A stretch of 56,175 nt of DNA from Bdellovibrionales bacterium (GTDB lineage: Bacteria > Pseudomonadota > Alphaproteobacteria > Micavibrionales > JBBKXB01), in the NCBI GenBank assembly GCA_037969255.1, contig JBBKXB010000066.1:1-56175 (forward strand). The letters run 5' to 3'. Within the stretch, counting starts at the first letter, position 1. Each line of letters starts with the position of its first letter. A program made the translations under genes and the position numbers. This document shows positions 7,917 to 55,000 of the stretch, in pieces. The notes below the pieces were generated by a model. It worked only from the letters and a program-made list of their open reading frames with translations, made no database searches and had not been told where the DNA came from.

Positions 7917-7979
7917 CTCAATATACTTTCTGTTGATCTATTCTAGCCTTACACACCAAATCACACTATAATTAACACT

Positions 7980-9473
7980 ATGGCGATAGCCCCACAGTTA
8001 AAGATGGATTTGCGCAACGCGCAACAAATGGTGATGAGCCCGCAACTCTCCCAAGCCATCGCTATGCTTCAAATGAACAATCTCGAACTCGCCGATTATG
8101 TTGATGAACAGCTCGGTCAAAACCCATTTCTTGAACGTGATAAAAAAGCGGGCGAAACCAATCGAGATGCCTCCGTAGAGAGCCTATCCGCGCAACCCAA
8201 TGATGTGCGCGATGCCATGAATAAAGCCCCTGAAAAAGTCGAAAAAATTGACCCTGTGGCCACAGATGGCGTGTACCAAGAGGGCGATCACGGATTTTCG
8301 AGTGACTCTATGGCAGGCGTTGGCTCTGGCGGACGCTCTGATTTTTCTAATGACACGCGCGCTTTTGATGAAAATATAACCACCACAAAAACTTTACGTG
8401 ATCATCTTCTTGAACAAGTCGCGCAAAGCTTTGCTGATCCGCGTGATCAAGGCGTGGCTGGATGGCTCGTGGATTATTTAGACGAGCGTGGATATTTGCC
8501 CTATGACGATGATGAATTGATGAATAAAATTGGCGTGAAACGTGGACGCCTCATCACCGTGATGGAAGAAATTCGCGGCTTTGACCCTGCTGGGATTTTT
8601 GCACGCGACTTAAAAGATTGCCTCACGCTCCAATTGGAAGACAGAGGCGAAATGGATGAAGCATGGGCGTTGCTACTGTGCAATTTAGATATGGTGGCAG
8701 AGCACGAGCTTTCAAAACTGGCTAAAATATGCGGGCTTGATACCAACCAATTAAGTGATCGTCTCAAAGCGCTTCGTACATTAAACCCGAAACCCGCAAA
8801 TGCGTTTGATCATATCGTTGTGCAAACGGCGCTTCCCGATGTGATGATGAAACGCATGCCAAAATCTGAGGGCGGCGGTTGGCGCGTGGAACTTAATCAC
8901 GACACACTTCCCAAAGTGCTCATCAATGAGATTTACGTGAATGAAATTAAACAGGCTGGCAAAGCTGACAAAGAAACAAAAACATTTGTATCCGAGCATA
9001 TCAACAATGCCAACTGGTTGATCCGTGCGATGGATCAACGCGCGCAAACTGTGCTCGCGATTGCCAGTGAAGTCATTGAAGCACAGCAAGGTTTTTTCTT
9101 GTATGGCGTAGAATTCCTCAAAACCATGACACTTAAAGATATTGCCGAAGAAGTCGAAGTCCATGAAAGCACCGTGTCGCGTATCGTAAATGGTAAATTT
9201 ATCGCCACACCGCGCGGATTGTTCGAGCTTAAATTCTTTTTCTCAAGCGGCGTATCCAACAGCGATGGGCAAGATGTCGCGTCCGAAGCTGTTAAATCCA
9301 AGATCAAAACTTTAATTGATGCCGAGGACTCCAAGAAAATACTATCCGATGACACACTGACCGCTATGCTTAAAAAAGATGGCATTAATATCGCACGGCG
9401 CACGGTGGCCAAATATCGCGAGGCCATGAATTATCCATCATCTGTGATCCGTCGTCGTCAGAAAAACAGCTAG
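7980..9473 (+). CDS. rpoN: RNA polymerase sigma-54 factor RpoN
   Basis: 497 aa. Region I (LSQAIAMLQMNNLEL), HTH and RpoN box ARRTVAKYREAM near the C-terminus. Confidence 0.95.
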   Translation: MAIAPQLKMDLRNAQQMVMSPQLSQAIAMLQMNNLELADYVDEQLGQNPFLERDKKAGETNRDASVESLSAQPNDVRDAMNKAPEKVEKIDPVATDGVYQEGDHGFSSDSMAGVGSGGRSDFSNDTRAFDENITTTKTLRDHLLEQVAQSFADPRDQGVAGWLVDYLDERGYLPYDDDELMNKIGVKRGRLITVMEEIRGFDPAGIFARDLKDCLTLQLEDRGEMDEAWALLLCNLDMVAEHELSKLAKICGLDTNQLSDRLKALRTLNPKPANAFDHIVVQTALPDVMMKRMPKSEGGGWRVELNHDTLPKVLINEIYVNEIKQAGKADKETKTFVSEHINNANWLIRAMDQRAQTVLAIASEVIEAQQGFFLYGVEFLKTMTLKDIAEEVEVHESTVSRIVNGKFIATPRGLFELKFFFSSGVSNSDGQDVASEAVKSKIKTLIDAEDSKKILSDDTLTAMLKKDGINIARRTVAKYREAMNYPSSVIRRRQKNS

Positions 9474-12564: not shown

Positions 12565-12620
12565 AAAAAATTTGTTTTTTTTGATAGCCAGACTAAAATC
12601 GTTCCTATAATGTTCTCATT

Positions 12621-14870
12621 ATGCAAGCAGATATGATTCCCCCCGCGCACCCTTCCGAAACCTACTTGAATGGTCTTAATACCCCGCAAATGAGCGCGGT
12701 TGAAGCGCTGGATGGCCCTGTGTTGGTGCTTGCTGGCGCGGGGACTGGTAAAACGCGTGTATTGACCACGCGTCTTGCACATTTGATCCGCACAAATAAG
12801 GCATGGCCGTCACAAATTCTGGCCGTGACCTTTACAAACAAAGCCGCCAATGAAATGAAAGAGCGCGTGATGAGCCTTGTGCCCGAGGCTGGTGATCAGG
12901 GCTGGTGGATTGGTACATTCCATTCTTTGGCCGCGCGTCTGTTGCGTCAAAATGCTGAACTGGTTGGCCTCACATCCTCATTCACCATTATCACGCCCGA
13001 TGACGCGCAACGTCTTCTTAAACAAATTGGCGAATCATTGGGTATTGATGTCAAAAAGAATCCTCCAAAACTCATGAGCGCTATTATTGATCGGTGGAAA
13101 GACAAAGCGATCACACCCGATATGCTCAAAGCCGAGGATGTTGGTCAAGCGGTGCAAGGTCGTATGGGGCAAATTTATAAACAATATCAACAACGCCTTC
13201 GTGAACTCAATGCCTGTGATTTTGGCGATCTTATGCTTCATTGCATCACCATTTGGAAAAATCCGAATAATCGCGACATTTTAGAAAACCTACAACGCAA
13301 GTTTCAATACATCTTGGTCGATGAATATCAAGATACCAATGTGGCGCAATATCAGTGGCTACGTTTACTCGCCATCGCGCACAACAATATTTGCTGTGTT
13401 GGAGATGATGATCAATCCATTTATGGGTGGCGCGGGGCAGAAGTCGGCAATATTCTCCGCTTTGAAAAAGACTATGATAACGCGATCACGGTACGCCTTG
13501 AGCAAAATTATAGATCCACGGGACATATATTACGCGCCGCCTCTCACGTGATTGCTAAAAACCAAGGACGGCTTGGTAAAACATTATGGTCTGAGGGCGG
13601 AAATGGCGAACAAATCACCGTGCGCGGTGTGTGGGATGCCCCTAGTGAGGCCAAATATATATCGACCACCATTGAAGAATCACGACTTAAAAATAATCGC
13701 CAATTAAAAGATTTTGCGATTCTCGTCCGCGCTGGGTTTCAAACGCGCGAATTTGAAGAACGTTTTTTACAAGTTGGCCTGCCGTATCGCGTCATAGGCG
13801 GTTTGCGTTTTTATGAGCGTGCAGAGATTCGTGACGCGCTTGCATACCTTCGGATTGTTGCGCAACCGAGCGATGATCTCGCGTTCGAGCGTATCATCAA
13901 CACGCCAAAACGCGGTGTTGGCTCTACATCTGTTCAAAAACTCCATGTCGAGGCACGCGCCAATGGCGTTCCGCTCACATCAATTTTGCGCCCTATGCTT
14001 GATCAAGGTGAGATCAAAGGCAAAGCGCACACATCACTAACCACATTCATGCATAATCTCACGCGCTGGGCGAATATGATTAACTCGACACCACCCGCTG
14101 ATCTCACCGAATTAATTTTGGAAGAATCGGGTTATATCGATATGTGGAAAAACGAAAAAACGCCCGATGCGCCAGGGCGCGTTGAAAATTTGAAAGAACT
14201 CGTATCGGCTGTGTCTCAATTTGACACGCTAGCGGGTTTTTTAGAGCATGTCGCGCTCGTCATGGACGTCCAAGACAATAGCGATGGCAACCAGATCACC
14301 ATCATGACATTGCACGGTGCTAAGGGTCTCGAATTCCCTGTTGTGTTTTGCGCAGGCTGGGAAGAAGGGGTATTCCCCTCGCAACGCTCCGTCGATGAAA
14401 ATGGATTACAAGGTCTTGAGGAAGAGCGCCGTTTGGCCTATGTTGGGATCACACGCGCACGCGAAAAACTCTATATCACACACGCCGCCAATCGTCAGAT
14501 TTACGGTCAATGGACATCTTCTATGCCCTCACGATTTATTAGTGAAATGCCAGATGAAACGGTGGATATGCAACGCGAACATGGTATGAATATGCGCTTT
14601 GGTGATAACACGCAATCATCCTCACCCGTTCGATCTATACCGATTGGCAAACGTACACCGCCCCCTGCGCAACGTACAGGTCGCCCGATCACGACGCCAG
14701 CTGATAGCGCACCAAAGGAAAATGCCAATGGATTTATAATTGGCGGTCAAGTCACACACCCGAAATTTGGTATAGGTACGATCTTTCACATGGATGGCAA
14801 CAAACTCGACATAAAATTCCCAAGTGGTGTAAAACGCATCCTTGATAGTTTCGTCAAATCTGCATCTTAA
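12621..14870 (+). CDS. uvrD: ATP-dependent DNA helicase UvrD/PcrA/Rep family
   Basis: 749 aa. Motif I AGAGTGKT, motif II VDEYQDTN, motif III GDDDQSIYGWRGA, motif VI VGITRAREKL. Confidence 0.9.
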   Translation: MQADMIPPAHPSETYLNGLNTPQMSAVEALDGPVLVLAGAGTGKTRVLTTRLAHLIRTNKAWPSQILAVTFTNKAANEMKERVMSLVPEAGDQGWWIGTFHSLAARLLRQNAELVGLTSSFTIITPDDAQRLLKQIGESLGIDVKKNPPKLMSAIIDRWKDKAITPDMLKAEDVGQAVQGRMGQIYKQYQQRLRELNACDFGDLMLHCITIWKNPNNRDILENLQRKFQYILVDEYQDTNVAQYQWLRLLAIAHNNICCVGDDDQSIYGWRGAEVGNILRFEKDYDNAITVRLEQNYRSTGHILRAASHVIAKNQGRLGKTLWSEGGNGEQITVRGVWDAPSEAKYISTTIEESRLKNNRQLKDFAILVRAGFQTREFEERFLQVGLPYRVIGGLRFYERAEIRDALAYLRIVAQPSDDLAFERIINTPKRGVGSTSVQKLHVEARANGVPLTSILRPMLDQGEIKGKAHTSLTTFMHNLTRWANMINSTPPADLTELILEESGYIDMWKNEKTPDAPGRVENLKELVSAVSQFDTLAGFLEHVALVMDVQDNSDGNQITIMTLHGAKGLEFPVVFCAGWEEGVFPSQRSVDENGLQGLEEERRLAYVGITRAREKLYITHAANRQIYGQWTSSMPSRFISEMPDETVDMQREHGMNMRFGDNTQSSSPVRSIPIGKRTPPPAQRTGRPITTPADSAPKENANGFIIGGQVTHPKFGIGTIFHMDGNKLDIKFPSGVKRILDSFVKSAS

Positions 14871-16685: not shown

Positions 16686-17827
16686 GCTTTTCGATCTTGC
16701 AATAATTCAATATAAACTGCAAGCGTATCGGCACACATTTTTTCCAAAGAAAACTTACTCTCGACCCACGTACGCGTTTCCATGGCGAGTATGTTCTTCT
16801 CGTCTTGCGAGGCTTTGAGCGCAGCGTCCATTCCACGCGCTAAATCATCAACATCCCCAGGGGCTACAAGCCAACCTGTTTTGCCATCAATAACCGTCTC
16901 ACGTGCCCCGCCATGATTGGTCGCCACCACCGCACGGCCCATAGCTTGCGCCTCCACTGGTACGCGCCCAAATCCTTCTGGTTCAATCGATGGGATAACC
17001 ACCACCGTTGATAAATTATAGGCAGACGGCATATCTTTGCATTGCTCTACAATACGCACTTGCCCTTCTAAACCCAATTCTTGGATTAAGTCTTCTAGTT
17101 CTTTAACGTACGCTTTGCGTCCTTGGGAATCCCCTGCGATCACAGCCACCAAATCGTCTTTGAGAATGTGTTTAAAGGCTTTTAGGAATTCGATTTGGCC
17201 TTTCCAGCGCGTGAGACGCGCAGGGCAAAATATGACACGTACACCATCAGGTAAACGCCAAGCTTTTGAGAGCAACATCATGCGCTCTGCTGTCACCAAA
17301 TTTGGATCAAATTTATTAAAATCAATGCCACGATGAATGACGCGTAGTTTGCTATCGGGCAGATCATAGCGACTTTGGGCATAATGCGCGACATAATCGG
17401 ATATCGCGATCACGCGTTCTCCTTTGACCATGACACTGTTATAAAATCTTTTAAATTTATTACTTGCTGGGTAGGGTGCATGCATTGTCGTCATAAATCT
17501 AGTATTCGTGCCTTTGCATGCTCTATAGGCAATCCAAGCGGGCACACGAGAGCGCGCATGCACAATGTCGACATTATTAGCTATGATGAATTTTTTGAGT
17601 TTTTTGCTCATCGCCATCATGGTGAAAAAGTTTTTTTTATGAACTGGCCATTCTTCGTGACGCGCATTGATGCGTGTTAAATCGTGGACACGTACACCGC
17701 CGTTAGACACAACGATTGATTCGGCGCCAGCGCGTACGATCTCACCCGCCATATCAATGCACCCTTGCTCAGCGCCACCAGCACCAAGGTTCGGAATAAT
17801 CTGCAAAATCACGGGTTTTCGTGCCAT
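16682..17827 (-). CDS. glycosyltransferase family 4
   Basis: 381 aa, GT-B fold signature with E-x7-E (EPEGFGRVPVEAQAMG). Convergent 4-nt overlap with rsmA. Confidence 0.8.
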   Translation of the reverse strand: MARKPVILQIIPNLGAGGAEQGCIDMAGEIVRAGAESIVVSNGGVRVHDLTRINARHEEWPVHKKNFFTMMAMSKKLKKFIIANNVDIVHARSRVPAWIAYRACKGTNTRFMTTMHAPYPASNKFKRFYNSVMVKGERVIAISDYVAHYAQSRYDLPDSKLRVIHRGIDFNKFDPNLVTAERMMLLSKAWRLPDGVRVIFCPARLTRWKGQIEFLKAFKHILKDDLVAVIAGDSQGRKAYVKELEDLIQELGLEGQVRIVEQCKDMPSAYNLSTVVVIPSIEPEGFGRVPVEAQAMGRAVVATNHGGARETVIDGKTGWLVAPGDVDDLARGMDAALKASQDEKNILAMETRTWVESKFSLEKMCADTLAVYIELLQDRKA

Positions 17828-17850
17828 AGGGGTTATGATACATAAGAACT

Positions 17851-39551: not shown

Positions 39552-40559
39552 TTAAAGAAAATCTAAGAGACTCAAAGACGCCGCCGCAGCCGTAGCGGCA
39601 AAACTTGCCTCAAGCTGAATTTGAATGTTTTGCAAGCGCACCGCTGTTTCCGTGATGTCGACATTTTCAACATTATCAACCAAAGTTTGCAAAGTTGAAG
39701 TATCAAAAACATGTTGCTTTCTCACTTCGGCAATCGTGGCTTCGCTCGCTTTGAGTGTCACCAAAGTGGCGTCTATGCCTTCTGAACTATTATATAATTT
39801 GGTCGAAAGCGTTTTGATCACTGTTTGTAAATCATCTTTTGAGGGCACATCCCCACCACTTGGAATGGTTATAGCCGCCATAATTTCGGACACGACAAGC
39901 ATGGATTTAATGGATGCATTATTGGCTTTAACGGTGTAATCAACTTTGAAATTTTCATCAGCCGTCACAGCCACGTTGCCAGCCGATATAACTTCGGCGC
40001 TAAATCCGACATCGGCATCCGTATATGTTTCAAATTTGGCCATAAATTGCGCCGTTGTCAGCGTGCCATCAAGCCAATCACTCACATCATCAGCGACCTG
40101 TACGCTAAAATTATCGCGGCCTTCATATGGTTTTGCTGTGAAATCTGAGCCTGCAAATACGTAACGTCCGTCAATTTGTTCATTTAAATTTCCGCTCGCC
40201 ACTTCAAGTAATTTAGAGGCATAACTTTTAAGTGAGGCTATATCCGTAGGACCATTAATATCTTGGAGATGAAACCCTTTTTGAAACCCTTGGACTTGAT
40301 TTTGAATAAGGCTAAGAGAATTGTCCGCCGCACGAATGCGGGTTGTCGCACGATCAATGTTGTTAATATATTGGCCACTTTCTTGGATGCCATTGCGGAA
40401 ACGAAGCGAGGATAAAGCATCGTCGCCCAATCCTTCAAAACGCGTTGTTTTTTTGCCAGAAGATAACGCCCGTTGCAAATCACTAAATTGTGCATTGAGT
40501 TTATCAAAACGATTAAGGCTCGTTGTAAGTTGGGCGAGCGCTGAAACACCTGTTGTCAT
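39552..40559 (-). CDS. flgL: flagellar hook-associated protein 3 FlgL
   Basis: 335 aa with flagellin-like N-terminal and C-terminal helices (…AVRLQNIQIQLEASFAATA…). Lies directly downstream of flgK. SD AAGGAGA. Confidence 0.75.
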   Translation of the reverse strand: MTTGVSALAQLTTSLNRFDKLNAQFSDLQRALSSGKKTTRFEGLGDDALSSLRFRNGIQESGQYINNIDRATTRIRAADNSLSLIQNQVQGFQKGFHLQDINGPTDIASLKSYASKLLEVASGNLNEQIDGRYVFAGSDFTAKPYEGRDNFSVQVADDVSDWLDGTLTTAQFMAKFETYTDADVGFSAEVISAGNVAVTADENFKVDYTVKANNASIKSMLVVSEIMAAITIPSGGDVPSKDDLQTVIKTLSTKLYNSSEGIDATLVTLKASEATIAEVRKQHVFDTSTLQTLVDNVENVDITETAVRLQNIQIQLEASFAATAAAASLSLLDFL

Positions 40560-40602
40560 TTAATTGGTCTCCTTTAAATTCTTATTTTAAATTCTTATCT
40601 CA

Positions 40603-42714
40603 TTATATCGCAGCAAATAATTCATCGAGCATTTCAATGCTGGATGTAATCACTTGTGCATTGGCGCTATAGACGCGTTGGAACGCGACCAAATTAGCAA
40701 TTTCATTATCTATATTCACGCCTGATTCGTTGCCCAATTGTTCCTCAATGGTTTGCCTAAAGGCTTCCTCAGAGTTGAAACTGCTACGAATATTTGCCGT
40801 TTCGCCTGATTGACTGGCAATAAGACGTTGGCCATAGGATACCAAGCTGGTGGCACTAAGAACTTGTCCAGAAATATCAGCTCCTGGTCCTAAATTGGTT
40901 GTACGGAACGCATTGTGTGGGTTTTGAATAATTTTCACGCCTATGGATGCAAGAGGTTTACCAAGACCATCAGCCAAATTAATATCAGCGCCATAGGTTG
41001 TGTTAATATTTAAAAATCCATTGACATCTAAAGTGGCTTCAACACCCGCCACAGCGTTTAATTTCGCCAATAATTGCGTGCTTGTATCTGTTGCTGTGAT
41101 CGCAATATTGACCGCCGCATTATCATTGATCTGAATAGAAAAGCTTGGGTCTTTTGCCGTTGTCGTGCCAGCTGTGATGCCCAAATCCTCTAGGCCAGCT
41201 GCGCCAATATTATTGTCTGTGATGATGATGTCTTCACTGCTTTCAAGCACAAGACGCCCCGTCGCAGACAAACTGGCTAACCCTGCAAAACTTGCATTAA
41301 TCGTATTAACCAAATCAGCCGCTGTATCGCCAGCGCCAATTGTGATGTTCACAGGTGCACCGCCACCCAATTGAAGAGTGAATGTGTCATTGCTGCCTGG
41401 TGTAATTCCATCAGCGGCATCCAATGTTAATAATGCTTGGATATTAGCGCTGCCAATAAATTTCGCACTTTCATCAAGTGATAATGTCGTGAATAGATTA
41501 GCCGCACCAGTGACATCTAAATCGACACTGCCCAGTCCCGTTTCAGAGCGCGTGTCGCCGAACGTAAATCTGTTAATGCGATCAATAATAGTGGTTGATC
41601 CGTTTGAAATGGTTTCGCCTTGGGTGCCCAAACGCAATAGACTTGGATCAGAAATAATTGCTTTGTTCACTTGCATGATACGAGAATAGCCAGCGTAACC
41701 TGTGGCGCTAGGCGAATCCGTGTTCGCAGGCACAAGACCGCCATTATCTGTAAACAGGCGTACACCTTGTTCGTCAAAACGTTGCGATACTTTTTGCGCA
41801 ATTTCATCCAATTCAGCTTGATAACGCGGAATAAGATCATCGCGTAAATCCACAAGACCGCCTAAACGTCCACCCAAAGCGCGCTCTGTAATATCAATAT
41901 TCATCGTGGCATTATTGGTTTGTGTGTTGGTGATGAAAATACCCGCGACACTTGTTGGGTAAGTATTTGTTGCGCTTAATGGCGCAGGGTTGAACACCAA
42001 TTTACGCGCTTGCGTATCAGCCAATAAGTCACCCTCTTGGGTTTGCACCACCGTGCGACCATCCGTTGTGGTGAAGTACGAAATATCGAGCTGTTCAGAA
42101 AGTTTAAGCAATATCAAATCGCGCTGATCATCGAGAGAGGCTGTTGATTGACCCACATTAAGGCGCGTAACAATATCATTATTCACGGCAACAAAGTCTG
42201 TCAAAAGACTGTTGATTGTGTTGACGCTGTCTTGCATCTCGGTTTGCGCTTCATTGCGAAGCGATGTGTATAAAGCGCTGGTGTCGTTGATACGCGACGC
42301 GAATATGCGCGCTGTATTTACCGTTTGGCTCAATAATTGAGCTGAATTTGGTTCATCTGACAATGCGAGGAAATTATTATTCAAACCTTGCAAAAGACTT
42401 GGTAGAGAATTTTCAAGCGCTGGATCACCGTGGAAAATTTGGATTTGATCAAGGAATTTGAGTTGTGCTTTTGTGTTACTCGCCAGCGATGTTTGCGTGA
42501 ATAGATCAAGCTGGAGCGCTTGGTCGACACTGCGTTGAATTTCGTTAACGCGTACACCAGATGTCGCACCCGCCACCACAACGTTCGTTTGTGACAGAGT
42601 TTTGCGCGTATAGCCTTCGGTTGTGGCGTTGGCAATGTTGGATGAGAGCAAGCCAACTTGTGCTTGCGCTGTGCGTAGGCCCGATAGGGCGATGTTTAAT
42701 GAATTACCAGTCAT
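40603..42714 (-). CDS. flgK: flagellar hook-associated protein 1 FlgK
   Basis: 703 aa. N-terminus LNIALSGLRTAQAQVGLLSSNIANATTEGYTRK and C-terminus EIANLVAFQRVYSANAQVI are the FlgK rod/hook-family signatures. Confidence 0.87.
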   Translation of the reverse strand: MTGNSLNIALSGLRTAQAQVGLLSSNIANATTEGYTRKTLSQTNVVVAGATSGVRVNEIQRSVDQALQLDLFTQTSLASNTKAQLKFLDQIQIFHGDPALENSLPSLLQGLNNNFLALSDEPNSAQLLSQTVNTARIFASRINDTSALYTSLRNEAQTEMQDSVNTINSLLTDFVAVNNDIVTRLNVGQSTASLDDQRDLILLKLSEQLDISYFTTTDGRTVVQTQEGDLLADTQARKLVFNPAPLSATNTYPTSVAGIFITNTQTNNATMNIDITERALGGRLGGLVDLRDDLIPRYQAELDEIAQKVSQRFDEQGVRLFTDNGGLVPANTDSPSATGYAGYSRIMQVNKAIISDPSLLRLGTQGETISNGSTTIIDRINRFTFGDTRSETGLGSVDLDVTGAANLFTTLSLDESAKFIGSANIQALLTLDAADGITPGSNDTFTLQLGGGAPVNITIGAGDTAADLVNTINASFAGLASLSATGRLVLESSEDIIITDNNIGAAGLEDLGITAGTTTAKDPSFSIQINDNAAVNIAITATDTSTQLLAKLNAVAGVEATLDVNGFLNINTTYGADINLADGLGKPLASIGVKIIQNPHNAFRTTNLGPGADISGQVLSATSLVSYGQRLIASQSGETANIRSSFNSEEAFRQTIEEQLGNESGVNIDNEIANLVAFQRVYSANAQVITSSIEMLDELFAAI

Positions 42715-42725
42715 GCATCAGATAT

Positions 42726-42741
42726 TGCAAAACACGTGCCA
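42726..42741 (-). promoter_or_regulatory. sigma-54 (-24/-12) promoter of flgK
   Basis: The minus strand reads CTGGCACGTGTTTTGCAA, which fits YTGGCACG-N4-TTGCW. GG is at 42740/42739 and GC at 42728/42727. The GC lies 13 nt upstream of the flgK ATG (42714). Confidence 0.8.
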
Positions 42742-42753
42742 GAATCAATTTAA

Positions 42754-42773
42754 GAGCCGGTCATAACCGACTC
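42754..42773 (-). terminator. hairpin between the 548-aa gene stop and the flgK promoter
   Basis: GAGCCGGT-CATA-ACCGACTC on the + strand. The 8-bp stem has a C-A mismatch on + that becomes G-U on the - transcript. A/T tracts lie on both sides, and the U tract is better on the + strand. Confidence 0.4.
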
Positions 42774-42795
42774 TTTTATTTAAATTTTTTAAAAA

Positions 42796-44442
42796 TTAAT
42801 TGGACGCGCCAGATCGAACACGTGCTTCGAGCGCATCACGGCGATCTTCAAGGTCATTGGACAGCATCGCCGCCAATAACATTTCGATACGCTCAAGTGC
42901 ATAAAGCGTGTCTTTTTGAAGACCAGACAGTTCACCCAACATAACCGTTTGTGTCGCCATATGAGCAGCATTATCCTCAGCTACACTCTGATCGAGATAA
43001 TTGGTTGAACGATAAGCCTCAACCTCAACATCACGGCGAACACGCGCTGATGGATGAATGGGTTTGTCTATGTCAACGCCATATACTTTTTCCCAGTTCG
43101 CCGCAAAAGCCTCTTCTGCTTTTTTAGCTTTTTCCTTATCTTCACCAAAAGATTGTGGTGTACGGCTCGCGATTTGCGAATTAAACACAGACGCTAATAA
43201 ATTAGATGAGCTAAGCAAACGGCGCGTCTTAGCAAATAATTCACGCGCGGCTAGGTCACCTTCACCATTGTCATTTCCTTGGACTCGTTTCAAGAAATTA
43301 AGAGAAAATGGTGAAAATGGCGCTGGCAACATATAATCACGAATGAGATAGGCAGACGCCAAATCCAAAGGTTTCACAGCTTTATCAGCATACATTTTTT
43401 CCCAGCGCTCATCTTCTTTTTCCGAGCAATATCGCATCGCTGCAGAACTCAGGATAAACTTTCCGTCGGCCGTTTCGTTTGTACAAGGATAGGTTGAAAA
43501 AATAGGCTTATCACTCATCAATTGATCAGTACGCATATCCATACCCGCTTTTGGATTGCCAGCTATACCTTTAATGTCTAATTTTTCACCGGCCCCCAAC
43601 CATGCTTGATCTGTGATATAACGTGCACCACCTGTGTCGTCTTTACCAAGCACCGCTTGGGCGATGTCATTATACCAAGACAATGGTCCCGCCGCGCCTG
43701 GTGCACCCAAGTCCGCGTTGCTTTTTGCCGCGATCTCTTCAGCGGCTTCATTTTCAATTTCTGTCTCGTGTTTGGACGCCGTATCTTTCAGCGGTTTTTC
43801 CTTAGCATCATCACCGCCACCTGAACCACCTGTACCTGCCGTGACAATTGGCCCAGTACCTCGCCCCCGTACAGGCTCACGTATAGCCCCCGCATTATCA
43901 GATATTTCTCCACGCCCTTGGGCAATACACCAACCTGAAAGATCACTTTGATATTTACCACGAACCGCAACTTCGGTGTTTGCTTCTTGAAGCGCGCGCG
44001 CCGCCGCATACTCGGCCTCTGCTAAAGCCGCCGCGCCGCCCAATTCAGCCATTGTGCCCGCTGCATTATTATTGATTATATCAGCCGCTAATTTTTCATC
44101 GCGTTCGGCTTCCCGCTTTTCAATGCCAAGCGCACTACGAATGGACTTATCAAATCCTTGAATGGTGGCGGTGATTTGGTTTTTAATTTCAACGACCGTT
44201 TTTATCGCTTGTACAACTTGCAACGATTCAAACTTTTGAATGGCCGCTACAATCGCAGCGTCACCTATGAGTACTGGCTTTACGTTATTTTTTGCCGATT
44301 GCTCTTGTTGTTCGACAACTTGTTTATTTGTGTCATCCAACGCGCTAAAGCCTGCGGCCTGCGCAGTAGATATAATCGACGTACTGGCCAATAAAGCCAC
44401 AATCGCAAAACTCGATATAAATTTAGTCATAAATCTCATCAC
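42796..44442 (-). CDS. hypothetical secreted protein (coiled-coil/Ala-rich N-half, Gly-rich linker)
   Basis: 548 aa. Signal peptide MMRFMTKFISSFAIVALLASTSIISTAQA and linker TGGSGGGDD. A relationship to IcmX/TraW is possible, but I cannot verify it from memory. Confidence 0.45.
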   Translation of the reverse strand: MMRFMTKFISSFAIVALLASTSIISTAQAAGFSALDDTNKQVVEQQEQSAKNNVKPVLIGDAAIVAAIQKFESLQVVQAIKTVVEIKNQITATIQGFDKSIRSALGIEKREAERDEKLAADIINNNAAGTMAELGGAAALAEAEYAAARALQEANTEVAVRGKYQSDLSGWCIAQGRGEISDNAGAIREPVRGRGTGPIVTAGTGGSGGGDDAKEKPLKDTASKHETEIENEAAEEIAAKSNADLGAPGAAGPLSWYNDIAQAVLGKDDTGGARYITDQAWLGAGEKLDIKGIAGNPKAGMDMRTDQLMSDKPIFSTYPCTNETADGKFILSSAAMRYCSEKEDERWEKMYADKAVKPLDLASAYLIRDYMLPAPFSPFSLNFLKRVQGNDNGEGDLAARELFAKTRRLLSSSNLLASVFNSQIASRTPQSFGEDKEKAKKAEEAFAANWEKVYGVDIDKPIHPSARVRRDVEVEAYRSTNYLDQSVAEDNAAHMATQTVMLGELSGLQKDTLYALERIEMLLAAMLSNDLEDRRDALEARVRSGASN

Positions 44443-44525
44443 CCTTTATTGTCAGTCTGTATCATCAATATTTAACAACACTTTTGTCTTTGTTTTTTTT
44501 AATTTTTTAAAAGACTTATCCCATT

Positions 44526-44541
44526 ATCATACCATAAAATT
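44526..44541 (-). promoter_or_regulatory. extended -10 promoter candidate (AATTTTATGGTATGAT) for the 548-aa gene
   Basis: The minus strand reads AATTTTATGGTATGAT (TGnTATGAT), 84 nt upstream of ATG 44442. Shares the 12-nt core ATTTTATGGTAT with 34289-34300 and 49248-49259. Confidence 0.55.
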
Positions 44542-44580
44542 CGTAAAATCACTCTAAAAAACTTTCATAAAATCGTAAAA
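44533..44580. repeat. imperfect direct repeat CATAAAAT(T)CGTAAAA x2 in the divergent promoter region
   Basis: Copies at 44533-44548 and 44566-44580 start 33 nt apart and differ by a single T indel. Each contains a GTAAA pentamer. Confidence 0.7.
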
Positions 44581-44594
44581 AAAGGCAAAATGAC

Positions 44595-44603
44595 TGTTAT
44601 AAC
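44595..44603 (+). promoter_or_regulatory. extended -10 promoter candidate (TGTTATAAC) for the icmL operon
   Basis: TGnTATAAC ends 26 nt upstream of ATG 44630. No good -35 element. Confidence 0.4.
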
Positions 44604-44629
44604 TTGAAAAAATAGGTAAGCTATTGGTC

Positions 44630-45403
44630 ATGAGTGACGATGAATTCAAAGATGTATTGGGTGATGATTTCGGCAATGCGCCCGAAACAATGGCTGAAAA
44701 AGCCCCAAAAACTAAGTCTAAAAAGCTAAAACCCACGCCTGAAAATGGTGATAAAAAAACCTTAGCTCAAGACAAAACGATGCTTGGACGTCTCGAATCA
44801 GTTGTCGTTCGTAACAATTATTACCGTGATGGGTATCGTATGTTGCTCAATGTGGCAGTAATTGAAAGTTTTGTGATTATCGCGCTCGTATCTGCGCTTG
44901 TGCTTGTGCTTGTGGGTGTACGTCCTCAAACGTATTTCTTTGCCACCACCGAAGACGGTCGACTTATTCCTATTGTGGCGCTTGATCAACCCAACTTAAG
45001 CGCGCCCGCCATTGTGTCTTGGACAGCCCAAGCCACCAGTGAAACCATGACATTTGGGTTCCATGATTATCGTCGTCGCCTCCAAGAAGCCTCTCGTCAC
45101 TTTACACGACGCGGTTGGGAAAGCTTTACCCGCGCCCTACAAACGTCTGGCATTATTGATGCCATCACCACAAATCGCCAAGTGATCACCGCCACACCGC
45201 GCGGTGCGCCAACGCTTATATCTGAAGGTATAGTCAATGGCCGCTATGAATGGCAAATTGAAGTGCCAATGTTAATTTCCTACGAATATGGTTCTGGGTC
45301 TAAACAATCACAACTAACACTTCGTTTATTGGTCGTGCGCGTTCCGCAACTTGAAAATGCAAATGGCGTTGGTATTGAACAGTGGATTGCCTATAACGGG
45401 TAA
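44630..45403 (+). CDS. icmL: T4BSS inner-membrane protein IcmL/DotI (TraM-like)
   Basis: About 257 aa, single TM (IESFVIIALVSALVLVLVGV), then the conserved periplasmic IcmL-like domain (YFFATTEDGRLIPIVALDQPNLS...TFGFHDYRRRL...). An alternative TTG start is at 44624. Confidence 0.75.
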   Translation: MSDDEFKDVLGDDFGNAPETMAEKAPKTKSKKLKPTPENGDKKTLAQDKTMLGRLESVVVRNNYYRDGYRMLLNVAVIESFVIIALVSALVLVLVGVRPQTYFFATTEDGRLIPIVALDQPNLSAPAIVSWTAQATSETMTFGFHDYRRRLQEASRHFTRRGWESFTRALQTSGIIDAITTNRQVITATPRGAPTLISEGIVNGRYEWQIEVPMLISYEYGSGSKQSQLTLRLLVVRVPQLENANGVGIEQWIAYNG

Positions 45404-45486
45404 TGCGGTTATGATGCCATCAATAAAAGGTCATTTTTCTCTTAATTATAATTGGTATATATAAAGTGCGTGTGTTACATAAAAAT

Positions 45487-46569
45487 ATGAATAATTTGAG
45501 TTACAAAACGAAGATTTTTTCGCTGGTTTTAACCAGTGCGCTGTGCATGGCCTCTACTGCAATCGCGCAATCAGACCCGCTTTCTGGCAATAGACTCAAT
45601 GGTCAAGACCCAGCGCCCAATAGTGTGGCCGCCGTACCAAACAGTAATAGTAACGCTGTGCCGCCCCCTGCGCCAGGTGGCGGTGTCTTAAATGATGGTG
45701 AAATTCCTGCGATTTCTGTTGAGTTATTAGCCTTAACACCCGAAGAACAACAAGAACTTGCCCTACAAAATGCCCGTGAGAAGATATTTGACAACACACT
45801 CACGCAAACATTACCGCTTGAGCCAGAAGAAATTAGAGAAGTTATTGACCGCTTTGAACAAACCACCAAGGCTGTTGAGCAACCTTTTGGTAACATCACA
45901 CCAAAAGCGGAAGTGCGCGTCTCCACAATTAATTTAGAACCCAGCGCCACACCTGAAATTATTCACCTCGCACCAGGTCATGTGTCTTCAATCACGATAT
46001 TAGATGCCACGGGGCAACCATGGCCTGTGGCTGATGTGAGCTGGGGCGGTGATTTTGAAGTTCAAACCCCACAAAATGGTGGGCATATTATTCGTGTTTC
46101 TCCGCTTGGCGGGTATAAAGTGGGCAATATGTCGCTTTCTCTTGTTGATTTACCAACACCAGTGACCTTCACATTACAAACACAACCCGACCGCGTTGAT
46201 TACCGCTTTGATGCACGTATGCCCATTCCAGGGCCAAATGCGCTTATTCCTGTGATTGAAACTCCCTTACAAACCCAAGCGGGTGATGGCTCGTTAATAT
46301 CCATTCTTGATGGCGTATCACCGCTCGGCACAACATCCTTAACTGTTTCAGGTGTTGATGGCCGTACATCCGCTTATAAAAACGGTGATCGCGTGTTCGT
46401 ACGCACGCCATTAACGTTATTATCGCCCGCGTGGAGTGAGCAAGTCGCCTCGGCCGACGGGATGACCGTTTACGTGATCCCAGACGCGCCTGTATTATTA
46501 TTGTCTGATAAAGGACGCATGGTACGTGCTTCTTTGTCTGATATTCCGAATGAAGCCATTTTAGAGTAG
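45487..46569 (+). CDS. icmK: T4BSS outer-membrane core protein IcmK/DotH (TraN-like)
   Basis: Start ATG 45487 gives a signal peptide ending AIAQ. About 360 aa, beta-rich C-terminal domain. Position between icmL and icmE. Confidence 0.7.
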   Translation: MNNLSYKTKIFSLVLTSALCMASTAIAQSDPLSGNRLNGQDPAPNSVAAVPNSNSNAVPPPAPGGGVLNDGEIPAISVELLALTPEEQQELALQNAREKIFDNTLTQTLPLEPEEIREVIDRFEQTTKAVEQPFGNITPKAEVRVSTINLEPSATPEIIHLAPGHVSSITILDATGQPWPVADVSWGGDFEVQTPQNGGHIIRVSPLGGYKVGNMSLSLVDLPTPVTFTLQTQPDRVDYRFDARMPIPGPNALIPVIETPLQTQAGDGSLISILDGVSPLGTTSLTVSGVDGRTSAYKNGDRVFVRTPLTLLSPAWSEQVASADGMTVYVIPDAPVLLLSDKGRMVRASLSDIPNEAILE

Positions 46570-46579
46570 AAAAGAAGAT

Positions 46580-47914
46580 ATGAGTAACGAAGACGATATT
46601 TTTGACGATGATTTCAGCGATTTCGGCGATACCGACGGCGAATTCAATGATGGTGACGCTGGTGATGGCGCCAAAAAATCTTTATTAGATGTCTGGAACA
46701 GCAACCCACTCGTTAAAATTGGGATTATCGCTGTGGTTCTTGTTGTCGGTTTGGGCAGTGTTTATGCATTCGTATTGAGTGGTGATAAAGACCCTGAACG
46801 ATCACGCCTTGGTAGCGCGGTGAACGATTCTGAGGCGCCGGGTCAAGTTGTCTCAGAAAACTTTGCTGATGCTTTGGATGAACGTAACCAACAAAATCTT
46901 GAAGCCGCTTTGGGCAATCGTAATGTATCCTCGATCCCTGTGCCCGTGAATCGCGGTGATAATGATTTGCAATTTGATGGCACTCAAAATATTCAAACCG
47001 AAGACCCGCTGGCGATTTGGCAGCGTGAAAATCGTGAACCTGACACCGTCCTTGCACAGCCAGAGCCATTGGGCGAACAAATTATTCCAGAGCCATTGAT
47101 TTTACCGCCACCACCACAACAAGTGGCGCTCCCTGAAGAAAGTATCCAAGGTCTCAACCAAGCCATTGGCAATCAAATCCAAAGCATTTTGGCCAATCGA
47201 CAGGTGAAACCAGGTCAATATCTTGCCCTTAATACTGAAACCGCTGATGGTGGTATCATAGGTCGTTCCCGCGCTGGCGCTGAACAAGCTGGTCTTTTAG
47301 AAGGCGGCAACAACAATGATAACCAGCGTGTTGAGGAAATCGTTGTTCCAGCTGGTACAATTCTCTATGGGCAGATTTTAAATGAAGCCAACAGCGACAC
47401 ACCAGGGCCTATTTTGGCACAAGTGCTCTCAGGCCCCGTGGCTGGCTCTCGCTTCATTGGCGAATTTGAACAACGCGAAGAAAAACTGATCATCAGCTTT
47501 AACACCGCCGTGGTTAAAGGCATAGGACGTCCGATGAGCGGGATTGCCATTGATCCGGCGACCACAAGCCCAGGCCTTGCCACTGATATTGATCGCCGTT
47601 ATTTCCGCCGTATTCTTTTGCCAGCCGCGGCTGAGTTTGTTCAAGGATTAGGTTCTGCTTATTCCGAGCAACAAAGCCAAGTCTTTACCAGCGGCGATGT
47701 GATTGTCACCAACACGGACAAATTAAACACCAAAGAACAATTTGCACGCGGTGTTGAACGTGGCGCTGAACGTGCAGCCAATATATTAGAAGAAGACGGT
47801 GATCGCCTCCGTGCGCTGATACGCGTAGAAGCGGGCACACCCATCGGTATCATCTTAACAGAACCAATTTTAAAGGCGGATGACGATATAGCCATCTCGT
47901 CCGAAATTAGATAA
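46580..47914 (+). CDS. icmE: T4BSS core protein IcmE/DotG (TraO; VirB10/TrbI-like C-terminus)
   Basis: 444 aa. Acidic N-terminus, one TM, Pro-rich linker (LILPPPPQQVALPEE). VirB10-like domain (VPAGTILYGQILNEANSDTPGPILAQV...IAIDP...). Confidence 0.75.
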   Translation: MSNEDDIFDDDFSDFGDTDGEFNDGDAGDGAKKSLLDVWNSNPLVKIGIIAVVLVVGLGSVYAFVLSGDKDPERSRLGSAVNDSEAPGQVVSENFADALDERNQQNLEAALGNRNVSSIPVPVNRGDNDLQFDGTQNIQTEDPLAIWQRENREPDTVLAQPEPLGEQIIPEPLILPPPPQQVALPEESIQGLNQAIGNQIQSILANRQVKPGQYLALNTETADGGIIGRSRAGAEQAGLLEGGNNNDNQRVEEIVVPAGTILYGQILNEANSDTPGPILAQVLSGPVAGSRFIGEFEQREEKLIISFNTAVVKGIGRPMSGIAIDPATTSPGLATDIDRRYFRRILLPAAAEFVQGLGSAYSEQQSQVFTSGDVIVTNTDKLNTKEQFARGVERGAERAANILEEDGDRLRALIRVEAGTPIGIILTEPILKADDDIAISSEIR

Positions 47915-47929
47915 AAAGGGAGCTATAAA

Positions 47930-49162
47930 ATGGCTGACAATATGAATGATGACATAGACAACCAAGTTGATGATCTAGATTTTTCTGATCTTGATTTGGG
48001 TGATGAGTCCTTTGAAAGTGGTGATTTTGATGATGGTGACACGAATAGTGAAGTCACATCTGAGAAAAAAGATTACACCTCATATATTGTATATGGGTTA
48101 ACAGGGCTTGTGGTCTTGGGTATTGCCGCATGGCAACTGGATTTATTTGGCAGTAGCACACCGGAACCATTCCGCGCTGATGACGTGCCTATGAATGATC
48201 AAATGAACAATCAATCTGCTGACCTTTTGCCTGGATCCAATGATCCTTTTAATGTGCTTGGCACTCCTGATCAACTTCCTACACAACAAACAGCGCAAGA
48301 CGATTCTAACAATCCATTGATCTTTGATGCTATGCAACCTGCTGATAGTATGTCGTCCGATACGTTATCTGATGAGGACGCTATGGCTATGGCGAATGAA
48401 CAAAGCGCAGATTTCATCCCTGCACAGAACAACCCCACGCCTACTTTAGAGGGCGACACGCTGCCAATGCCACAACAGCCCGATGTTCTTCTTACTGATA
48501 CAGCCACGCCTACCCCTGCAGAGGCTATGGTTGACGCCCCTGATACTAACAATGAAACGGCTTTTGTTGCCGAACCAACCATTGAAACTGAAAAACCTCT
48601 TCCTACAGCAACGCCTTCAAAAACCGCTAGTATAGGAAACAGTGATGTGAATGCGATCATGACAACACTTGATGCCATCACAAAACGTCTCGATACAATT
48701 GAAACGCGCCTTGAAAACACTGATAACACACCAGCACCAAGCAAAGATATTAATGACTTGCAAAAAGCGATGGTGGCTTTGGAATCTAAACTTAAGACTG
48801 TTGAGAAAAAGGCCGAAGATAAACCTAAAGTGACCAACGCGCCTGCTCAAACGACAGTTTCTAAAAAAGCATCCGTTAAAAAAGCGTCCGTTAAAAAGAA
48901 AAGCACATCTAAGTGGGATCAACCCTACGATGGCGGCGCAATTTTGGATAAAACAACATCTGTTGCCAGCGCTACGACGACTTCAAGTGGTCTATACTCA
49001 TTGCGTGCAGCCCAACCTGGTAAAGGTTATATTGACGATGGGTCAGGCGCGATATTAGAGGTGCGTGTTGGTACAATCATACCAAATATGGGGCAAGTGA
49101 CCTCCATTTCAGACAATAATGGTCAATGGATGGTGATGACCACGCAAGGCGCTATAAAATAG
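47930..49162 (+). CDS. icmG: T4BSS protein in the IcmG/DotF (TraP) position
   Basis: 410 aa. Acidic N-terminus, one TM (IVYGLTGLVVLGIAAW), long P/T/A/D-rich linker, small C-terminal beta domain. The assignment is mainly positional. Confidence 0.45.
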   Translation: MADNMNDDIDNQVDDLDFSDLDLGDESFESGDFDDGDTNSEVTSEKKDYTSYIVYGLTGLVVLGIAAWQLDLFGSSTPEPFRADDVPMNDQMNNQSADLLPGSNDPFNVLGTPDQLPTQQTAQDDSNNPLIFDAMQPADSMSSDTLSDEDAMAMANEQSADFIPAQNNPTPTLEGDTLPMPQQPDVLLTDTATPTPAEAMVDAPDTNNETAFVAEPTIETEKPLPTATPSKTASIGNSDVNAIMTTLDAITKRLDTIETRLENTDNTPAPSKDINDLQKAMVALESKLKTVEKKAEDKPKVTNAPAQTTVSKKASVKKASVKKKSTSKWDQPYDGGAILDKTTSVASATTTSSGLYSLRAAQPGKGYIDDGSGAILEVRVGTIIPNMGQVTSISDNNGQWMVMTTQGAIK

Positions 49163-52015: not shown

Positions 52016-52083
52016 TCAAAAAGAGGCTGGATAGCCTTTAATCCCCTGTTGCCCTTATAATCATGCACGTATAGAATTGCACA

Positions 52084-55000
52084 ATGGGTTTTTTCTCATC
52101 CTTTATGACACCGTTTGTAAAATCGGCGCGTTACCCGCTTGAAAGCTTTATCAGGCTTGAAACGGCGGACGATTCAACAACGCTTGTTGCCGAAGACGGT
52201 TCACTTGTCACACTGATTCGCGTGGACGGTTCACGTATCCTTATTGGTGACGAAGAATACAGATATATTATTGAGGCCGCGACCACCAAAATTGGGTCAC
52301 GCTTCGATCAACCTGGTTATGCGATGCAGTTTTTCTTCTCTCGCGACCCAGCGCGTGCCAAAGAACAAATTGATGATTTGGTGCAACCAAGCCGTGCCTC
52401 CGTTGAGGCTATGGATCTCGATCTTGATGATTTGATGCGCGAACGCACGCGCCATCTCTCGCATTATATCCTCAAAGAAGACTATTATGTCGTCTTGTGG
52501 ACGCGTCCATCAGTTCTAAATAAAAACGACATTGATCGTGCGGGTAAACAAGCTAAAAACCGCAAGTGGGTGGTCGCGCCTGATGCGCAATATCCTTTTG
52601 CCGCACTTGATCAATTGCGAACCCGTCATTCCTCATTCGTGAGTGGTATTTTAACCATGTTTGAAGATTTATCAATCAAGGCCGAAGAATTAGAAGTCCA
52701 TGATGCGCTCACATCCATTCGCAATGTGCTCCATCCTGATCTTGCAAACGATAAGTGGCGCGCTTGCGTGCCAGGTGATCCTATTCCACCCCGTGCACAA
52801 AAAACAGCGGGTGATCTCTCCGATATTTTATGGCCACCATTACGCCAGCAATTAACCGCCGCACATGCCGAAATTAAAAACGATCATATGGTGCGCATTG
52901 GGCGCAAACTCTGGTCGGGCTGTGATATGACGCTTGGGCCTATGGACCCATCACCATTTCCCGTGCTCATGAACCGCCTTTTTGAAGCGGGTGTACCGTT
53001 TCGTATATCGTTCCTTATTGAAGGCGGCGGGGTGCAAGGTTCCACGCTTAAAAGCTCTGTGGCCTCAGTACTGGCTGCCACAAACGCGCAAAACCGTTCG
53101 ATTAAAAATTCACTGACACAACTCCAAGCCTATGCCCGTGGGCAACCTGTTGTGCGCATGCGTATGTCGCTCGCCACATGGGCAAACGAAGGTGAAGAAG
53201 ACTTATTAGAAGATCGCCTTTCTACACTTATCCAATCCACCGAGGCATGGGGTTATACCCAAGTTTCCACCTTAATTGGTGACCCGCTTGATTGTGTGAT
53301 GAGTTCGGCGCTTGGGATTGCGTGTGCATCGACTGCGCCGCCAGCCGTGGCGCCTTTGGCCGAAGTGTTCAAACTTATTCCATGGCAACGCCCAAGCTCG
53401 CCCTTTGAGACAGGCTCTGTCATGCTCAGAACGCCTGATGGGAAGGTCTGGCCTTATGCCACAGGCTCTAGCTTAACCACCACGTGGTTCGATCTTATTT
53501 TCGCGCAACCGGGTGCAGGTAAATCTGTGTTGATGAACACGCTCAATCTTGGGACAATCTTGGGCCCTGGACAATCCAAATTGCCCTATGTGGCGGTGAT
53601 TGATATTGGCCCTTCAAGTGCAGGTCTTATTTCTATGATCAAAGAGGCACTTCCTGCCAATCGTAAACATGAGGCGGCGCATTATCGCTGGCAAATGAGC
53701 CCTCAATACGCGGTGAACCCATTTGATACGCAACTTGGGTGCCGTGAACCCTTAATGGATGAACGCGCTTATTTGATTGAGTTGATGATCCTTTTAACAA
53801 CACCCCCAGGGCAAGATCGCCCTTATGACGGGATGCAGCAACTCGCTGGTTTGGTGGTTGATGAAATGTTCCGCTGGCGTGCGGATGGGAATGCCAATGC
53901 CGAACCGCGCCCCTATTTACCGCGCCTTGACAGCGATATTGATGAAGCCTTATCAAAACATAATATTCATTTGCCCACCGATCCATACTGGTGGGATGTG
54001 GTTGATAAATTCTTTGATCTTGAGGAATATCATCTTGCCAATCTGGCACAACGTCACGCGGTGCCCGTGCTTGGTGATGCCATCACAGCCGCCCGTCGTC
54101 CTCAAATTCGCTCACTTCTAGAGGACACACAAATTGGCAATAGCTCAGAAAATGTTATCAATGCGTTTGAACGTATGATCACTTCGGCCATTCGTGAATA
54201 TCCAATTTTATCCGCCGTCACAAGATTTGATATCGCTGGCGCGCGCGTGTGTGCGCTTGATTTGATGGATGTATCACCACAAGGGGACGAATCCGCAGAT
54301 CGTCAAACCGCGATTATGTACATGTTGGCGCGTCACTGTTTGATCCGTAGCTGGTGGGTGAATACGGACAGTCTACGCCAAATCCCTGAAAAATATCAGA
54401 TGTATCACGAACTTCGTATGCGCGATATTTCTGAAACCCCCAAACGTCTTTGCTATGATGAATTTCATCGCACATCCAAATCTAAATCTGTGCGTAATCA
54501 GATTATTCGTGACGTACGAGAAGGTCGTAAACGCGGCGTACAAATTGTTTTATCCTCACAATTATTGGATGATTTTGACAAAGACATGGTCGATTTGGCC
54601 ACAGGTGTTTGGATTTTGGGTACGGCCATCTCTGATAATGCGGTGGACGCCGCCCAAGACCGCTTTGGCCTTTCCAACACAGGGCGCAACATCATTCGTT
54701 ATCGCCTCACGGGACCCCGTTCTGGTGGTGCGCCGTGTCTATTCGTGCTCGGTTCTAATGAGGGTCGCTACGAACAACATCTTATCAACACGCTGGGCCC
54801 CATTGAATTATGGGCGCTCTCTACATCCACCGAAGATGTCGCCATTCGTGATCGCCTTTATGCCAGATTGGGCGCACGCCGCGCCCGTCAAATGCTCGCT
54901 GCCAGTTTCCCTGGTGGATCAGCACGACCAGAGATTAAACGCCGCGTGATGTCGCGCTCTGAAAAAGGTGAAATTCACGCCGCCGCCACATCCGAAGTGA

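Follow-up and report, generated by a model that had tools for sequence, protein, structure and literature searches.

A sigma-54 promoter abutting the flgK start codon and a predicted leaderless flgK-flgL message in an alphaproteobacterial type IVB secretion and thin-pilus locus

Introduction

The closest described counterparts of the promoter reported here are the sigma-54/FlbD class III promoters of Caulobacter crescentus (flgK = flaN, flbG, fljK), where a promoter with -24 and -12 elements drives an alphaproteobacterial flgK-flgL pair, as would be the case at our locus. Late flagellar genes of other bacteria are also subject to controls that act through the untranslated region (UTR) of the message. 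A second point of comparison is provided by leaderless mRNAs made from sigma-70-type promoters, in which the -10 box abuts the open reading frame (ORF). Such messages are described for Sinorhizobium meliloti (PMC3616915), for Deinococcus-Thermus (PMC12340547) and for Caulobacter, and the S. meliloti study gives 171 leaderless mRNAs (lmTSS), all starting with AUG. Here we analyze a 56,175-nucleotide (nt) stretch of alphaproteobacterial DNA (contig JBBKXB010000066.1 of assembly GCA_037969255.1, order Micavibrionales), which we refer to in its entirety as the window. Within it, a sigma-54 promoter stands so close to flgK, the gene for hook-associated protein 1, that the flgK transcript is predicted to begin at or next to the start codon itself. 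For comparison we used 10 contigs carrying FlgK homologues (L081-L084, L086-L089, L170 and L171; 80% to 41% identity), which together with the window make up 11 loci and 142.6 kb.

Results

A sigma-54 promoter core directly upstream of flgK

Read on the minus strand, positions 42742-42709 of the window are CTGGCACGTGTTTTGCAATATCTGATGCATGACTGG, with TGGCAC at 42741-42736 and TTGCA at 42730-42726. The features that make up this junction are as follows.

42724 to 42746, minus strand: 23-nt block GATTCTGGCACGTGTTTTGCAAT, 100% identical to the related locus L081
42726 to 42741, minus strand: sigma-54 promoter core TGGCACG-TGTT-TTGCA, with GG at 42740/42739 and GC at 42728/42727; unique perfect match
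42715 to 42725, minus strand: spacer ATATCTGATGC, 11 nt from TTGCA to ATG; pyrimidine/AT-rich, free of a Shine-Dalgarno (SD) sequence, holding an in-frame TGA
42714, minus strand: predicted +1, first base of the flgK start codon (plausible range 42716-42714)
40603 to 42714, minus strand: flgK, hook-associated protein 1, 703 amino acids (aa), assigned by Pfam and NCBIfam

The core matches the extended consensus TGGCACG-N4-TTGCW at 16 of 16 positions, and the gap from GG to GC is exactly 10 nt. An initial annotation of this DNA had placed the -24/-12 elements at these coordinates with this spacing, and each position was confirmed on the minus strand. The same annotation saw no other good sigma-54 site in the window, which agrees with our motif scan of all 56 kb, where the 16-mer was the sole site with zero or one mismatch. 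A perfect site arose in 3 of 100 dinucleotide-shuffled sequences, which sets the chance expectation at 0.03 per window. A promoter scan of 42300-43300 returned no sigma-70-like promoter, and no Rfam family was matched within 42500-43000. The 16-mer at 42741-42726 is very probably a real sigma-54 promoter, and its use is predicted.

Two other explanations for the match were considered and rejected. A chance match is ruled out by conservation across the related loci, as described below, and an assembly artefact is ruled out by the recovery of an identical promoter-ATG junction from two samples and two assemblers. In the Logan assembly of the source sample, positions 42550-42950 are identical to the window, with zero differences.

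The distance from the -12 C (42727) to the A of the flgK ATG (42714) is 13 nt. None of GGAG, GAGG or AGGA occurs between the promoter and the ATG, and the 11-nt spacer lies inside the promoter footprint. An in-frame TGA at 42720-42718, two codons before the ATG, makes an upstream start for flgK impossible. The ATG at 42714 aligns exactly with the Met of the 10 orthologues, and the FlgK N-termini match residue for residue (MTGNSLNIALSGL vs MSVGALNIALSGL), so the start codon is homologous in loci with and without a leader. The Pfam domain Flg_bb_rod starts at residue 6 of the protein. Between the window and L081, codons 1-20 of flgK carry 9 synonymous and 0 non-synonymous differences, and given the closed upstream frame, translation must begin at ATG 42714. 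The earlier reading of this start, namely that no SD intervenes, that no alternative in-frame start lies nearby and that the encoded N-terminus is that of FlgK, thus holds in full. An alternative start further downstream was ruled out by the purifying selection on codons 2-20.

Two of the related loci bear on how this start is called. In L081 (1852-1881), no stop interrupts the frame between a GTG within the promoter (TGG CAC GTG) and the ATG, whereas in the window the TGA closes it, and this difference supports the common ATG as the true start. In L083 (3001-3066), the database FlgK call (P0006, 724 aa) begins about 21 codons too early. This miscall takes in both the hairpin of the terminator and the sigma-54 promoter, and the ATG that aligns with the orthologues lies 48 nt past the -12 C.

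A predicted transcription start at the first base of flgK

For Caulobacter promoters with an RpoN motif, 5′ rapid amplification of cDNA ends (5′-RACE) places the first G of GGCNC-N4-CTTGC mostly at -26, the extremes being -25 and -28 (PMC4287350, S15, a table that gives no UTR lengths). Since the first G is at 42740 here, the Caulobacter spacing puts +1 at 42714, the A of the ATG. In Campylobacter jejuni, differential RNA sequencing (dRNA-seq) showed that the sigma-54 motif ends 8-13 nt before the transcription start site (TSS; PMC3847290), and the 10 nt counted at flgK fall within that range. A purine occupies the thirteenth position after the -12 C in 8 of the 11 clade promoters, with a pyrimidine-rich tract before it. 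When the predicted flgK mRNA was folded, its first ~24 nt were unpaired in both the minimum free energy (MFE) and the centroid structures. The initial annotation had proposed a TSS at, or within 1-2 nt of, the start codon, and the comparative evidence presented below supports this proposal. We consider it likely that the flgK-flgL mRNA is sigma-54-driven and either leaderless or preceded by a leader of 1-2 nt. We also lean towards the stricter prediction that the sigma-54 holoenzyme makes a truly leaderless mRNA here, with an AUG at its very 5′ end, at a constant 13 nt from the -12 C.

Leadered and leaderless forms of one orthologous promoter

With the strict motif TGGCAY-N5-TTGCW, we found 11 occurrences in the 142.6 kb, one per locus (11/11), and in all 11 the motif was on the flgK coding strand, just upstream of flgK. 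What is conserved over the 11 loci is TGGCAY, five free bases and TTGCA; the N5 and the flanks are variable. If transcription is assumed to start at the 13th base downstream of the -12 C, leaders of the following lengths are predicted.

Window: 0 nt
L081: 0 nt
L088: 20 nt
L086: 21 nt
L089: 21 nt
L087: 22 nt
L082: 23 nt
L171: 34 nt
L083: 35 nt
L170: 37 nt
L084: 47 nt

An AGGA, AGGAG or AGGAGG stands 6-11 nt before the ATG in 9 of 9 leadered orthologues, and none is found in the window or L081. In a maximum-likelihood tree of FlgK, the window and L081 form a pair with 100/100 support; the sister of this pair is a group of seven leadered loci, and the outgroup is the leadered L170 and L171. With both sister clade and outgroup leadered, the leader was lost once, on the branch to the window and L081, and on this tree the loss is one derived event of about 21 nt.

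The distance between promoter and start was also surveyed more widely, at 152 flgK loci, where contig scans of genomes and metagenomes added only distant FlgK proteins (35% identity or less). A single-protein query scan of genome contigs returned no FlgK relatives. A decent sigma-54 site was present in 45 of the 152 surveyed loci, and outside the window and L081 the distance from the -12 C to the start was never below 33 nt.

The two leaderless genomes are far apart at the nucleotide level. Between the window and its sister L081, whose FlgK proteins are 80% identical, flgK has 72.8% nucleotide identity, a pS of 0.71 and a dS of ~2.3. In L081 the spacer is ATTATACCTGC, with its length of 11 nt unchanged and 5 of 11 bases in common with the window. 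An identical promoter block and a fixed spacer length at saturated divergence indicate constraint on the promoter and also on how far it lies from the ATG. Against L081, flgK has a dN/dS ratio of 0.066 and flgL one of 0.11, values that place both genes under strong purifying selection and indicate that both remained functional once the SD had gone.

The hairpin upstream of the promoter and the search for an enhancer

Two further features precede the promoter.

42796 to 44442, minus strand: upstream gene, 548 aa, unassigned function, with its TAA stop at 42796-42798
42752 to 42775, minus strand: 10-bp hairpin AAGAGUCGGU-UAUG-ACCGGCUCUU followed by UUAAAUUGAUU, -14.5 kcal/mol, z = -4.06

The hairpin is retained in L081 through compensatory changes, and canonical terminators occupy the corresponding position in the relatives L083, L084, L170 and L171, where the promoter follows. 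Together this suggests that the hairpin is the probable terminator of the upstream gene, possibly a leaky one.

The 548-aa protein itself matched no Pfam or NCBIfam family. Its C-terminus, LERIEMLLAAMLxNDLEDRRDALEARV, is conserved in the closer relatives, with the last 22 residues 95% identical to L081, and the high nucleotide identity of the 3′ end of the gene is a result of this conservation. The initial annotation had suggested that this 3′ end be searched for sites of a bacterial enhancer-binding protein (bEBP), and motif and synonymous-conservation tests demonstrated no such site. The sole enhancer-like dyad that we saw is the palindrome GATCTT(G/C)AAGATC, which precedes TGGCA by ~104-113 nt in L081 (~1738) and L087 (~2847), and which the window shares with a single mismatch (~42850-42862, minus strand). 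It coincides with the conserved NDL(E/Q)DR codons and is inseparable from their coding constraint. Repeats of the ftr type (CGGCA...GCCG) were absent from -260 to +60 in the 11 clade loci. A lone GAFSGA match in L086 sits in a frame interrupted by stops.

Between the upstream stop and the hairpin lies a tract of A and T only, TAATTTTTAAAAAATTTAAATAA (42776-42798, minus strand), which falls at roughly -60 to -85 relative to the predicted +1 and is only partly conserved in L081. Intrinsic bends and sites of the integration host factor (IHF) type help enhancer looping at sigma-54 promoters, and the tract could be such a bend or an IHF-type site.

Genes of the locus

Two other genes complete the description of the unit and its sigma factor.

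39552 to 40559, minus strand: flgL-like gene, 335 aa, second in the unit; AGGAG SD of its own at 40569-40573
7980 to 9473, plus strand: rpoN (sigma-54), in an lptA-lptB-rpoN context

FlgK carries the Pfam domains Flg_bb_rod, FlgK_D1, Flagellin_IN and Flg_bbr_C, scores 244 bits against the NCBIfam model TIGR02492 (cutoff 171), and has alphaproteobacterial proteins as its named FlgK homologues. The flgL gene starts 44 nt past the end of flgK. The FlgL-like protein has a flagellin/FlgL-like N-terminus and falls under all NCBIfam cutoffs (61.5 vs 127.2 bits for flagell_flgL, 85.5 vs 217 for the flagellin model PRK08913); within the flagellin/HAP3 superfamily it is a divergent protein. RpoN was placed within the window by the initial annotation, and domain and NCBIfam searches agree: the protein is complete, with AID, CBD and DBD, and scores 545 bits against NF004596 (cutoff 499).

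In 11 of 11 loci, flgK-flgL sits between icmL/icmK/dotG, genes of a Dot/Icm-type type IVB secretion system (T4BSS), and PilV/Shufflon_N thin-pilus genes (39552-48000 in the window). By this comparison, promoter-flgK-flgL is a deeply conserved module of a T4BSS/thin-pilus locus, maintained down to 41% FlgK identity. The flagellar framing is less certain than the initial annotation assumed, because flgKL is a fixed part of the T4BSS/thin-pilus locus in all relatives. The promoter-flgK-flgL unit may serve the Dot/Icm-type T4BSS and the PilV pilus, and not a flagellum.

Initiation without an SD sequence elsewhere in the window

Of 48 genes called crudely across the window, only about one third have an SD. 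A -10-like hexamer lies 6-9 nt before the ATG of rpoN, uvrD, a glycosyltransferase gene and one more ORF. At rpoN (7955-7982, plus strand), a TATAAT ends 7 nt before an ATG with no SD, an arrangement that resembles a sigma-70-type leaderless gene. Similar arrangements are seen at uvrD (TATAAT and 9 nt), the glycosyltransferase gene (TATCAT and 7 nt) and a 1017-aa ORF (TAGAAT and 6 nt), with sites of this kind at 12600-12623 (plus strand), 17827-17850 (minus strand) and 52060-52086 (plus strand). Given the scarcity of SD sequences and the -10 boxes 6-9 nt from the ATG, initiation without a leader or an SD may be routine for this organism.

Evidence against a leaderless start, and rival explanations

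Several observations weigh against a leaderless flgK message. The sequence is present only in DNA runs of one sediment metagenome, and the 5′ end of flgK is a predicted one. Starts from sigma-54 promoters vary by 1-2 nt, and initiation 1 nt past the A would leave the message without an intact AUG. The two leaderless loci count as a single evolutionary event. As most genes here are SD-free, the absent SD is weak evidence alone, and -10 boxes at leaderless distance are weakly enriched (6 vs 3.9 per bin, 48 genes). A bEBP gene, searched for as an in-frame GAFTGA or GESGTGK, is absent from the window and the nine closer loci, and upstream of the 11 promoters the inverted repeats and shared 7-mers were terminators or codon-driven words only, with no common enhancer motif. 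Synonymous conservation was not clearly raised in the 3′ end of the upstream gene (14/21 vs 50%), nor in the first 60 codons of flgK. Finally, the tail of the upstream hairpin is U-poor and the hairpin was not called by a consensus terminator scan of 42300-43300, so read-through transcripts may also carry flgK.

This last point is the basis of the rival that survives best, which we nonetheless regard as unlikely: the promoter is real, and FlgK is made mainly from read-through transcripts of the 548-aa gene, by SD-independent initiation at an internal AUG, with the sigma-54 output minor. Besides the U-poor tail and the silent terminator scan, the rival can draw on the SD-free state of about two thirds of the window genes, which implies that SD-free internal initiation must be common. 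However, the hairpin is significant (z = -4.1) and has been preserved by compensatory changes, and the relatives have strong terminators at that position, followed by the sigma-54 promoter. The promoter block is also perfect at saturated divergence, with a spacer of fixed length and free sequence, a pattern that is hard to explain if the output of the promoter goes untranslated.

We give very little credence to a second rival, in which loss of the leader crippled flgK, flgKL is being silenced or lost, and the abutment of promoter and ATG is a deletion accident. A deletion of ~21 nt that removed the SD is indeed the simplest mutational origin of the junction, but the ORFs are intact in two synonymously saturated genomes, and both the dN/dS values and the purely synonymous differences in the first 20 codons of flgK speak for genes that are maintained. 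It is equally improbable that the conserved block is the site of another regulator or an RNA structure element with a coincidental -24/-12 match: neither an activator nor an enhancer was found at the locus and use of the promoter is a prediction, yet it is precisely the sigma-54-defining positions that are conserved in 11 loci while the N5 and flanks vary, a complete rpoN is encoded, Rfam is silent, and strand and position relative to flgK are always those of a promoter.

Discussion

We propose that the RpoN promoter at 42741-42726 would serve flgK and flgL, as a two-gene unit, exclusively, with the hairpin in front of it ending the transcript of the upstream gene. An enhancer-binding ATPase would open the promoter, and transcription would begin at A 42714 or at most 1-2 nt earlier. 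A ribosome would then bind the 5′-terminal AUG and translate flgK with neither leader nor SD, and flgL would be translated conventionally from its own AGGAG. The ancestral form, retained in nine relatives, was the same promoter followed by a predicted SD-bearing leader of 20-47 nt. Loss of ~21 nt in the lineage of the window and L081 brought the ATG to the predicted +1, and this geometry has persisted in both genomes. The motif with its spacing and uniqueness, its conservation, the direction of the change, the purifying selection on the two genes and the presence of rpoN are demonstrated by the sequences, and use of the promoter, the exact 5′ end, the leaderless translation and the activator are inferred.

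If the scheme is true, an enhancer-gated promoter can yield a message without a 5′ UTR. Such a unit would be regulated at the level of transcription alone, and the UTR-based controls known from late flagellar genes would have nowhere to act. The rigid -24/-12 geometry would also make leaderless genes of this kind predictable from sequence by a 13-nt rule.

Set beside the described systems, the locus shares features with each and departs from each. In the Caulobacterales flgK loci of our survey, the sigma-54 site is about 143-175 nt from the start, with CGGCA...GCCG ftr-like repeats between the two, in contrast to the 13 nt found here. Unlike the Caulobacter class III units, this unit has no ftr-like element and no FlbD in view, and it belongs to a T4BSS/pilus locus as opposed to a flagellar cluster. 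With sigma-70-type leaderless mRNAs it has in common a predicted 5′ end on the A of the AUG and an SD-free, unstructured start, as well as a predicted order in which the first gene is leaderless and the next uses an SD. It differs from them in its promoter class, enhancer-dependent sigma-54, where the fixed geometry is -24/-12 and not -10/-35. In the literature searched, which includes part of Table S10 of PMC3616915, we found no sigma-54 promoter to which a leaderless TSS had been assigned. Promoters of this class and leaderless mRNAs are both familiar, and the two together appear undescribed in that literature. The nearest comparison is with the clade orthologues (L082-L089, L170, L171). They are alike in the terminator-promoter-flgK-flgL layout, the TGGCAY-N5-TTGCA motif, the FlgK N-terminus and the T4BSS neighbourhood, and unlike in their leader of 20-47 nt with an AGGA-type SD, compared with 0 nt in the window and L081. 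One clade thus keeps both forms of one orthologous promoter, since nine genomes have a predicted leader with an SD and two have none, and both gene products are under strong purifying selection. This offers an evolutionary control beyond single-genome cases, and a natural before-and-after pair for a predicted switch from SD-led to leaderless initiation made while under enhancer control.

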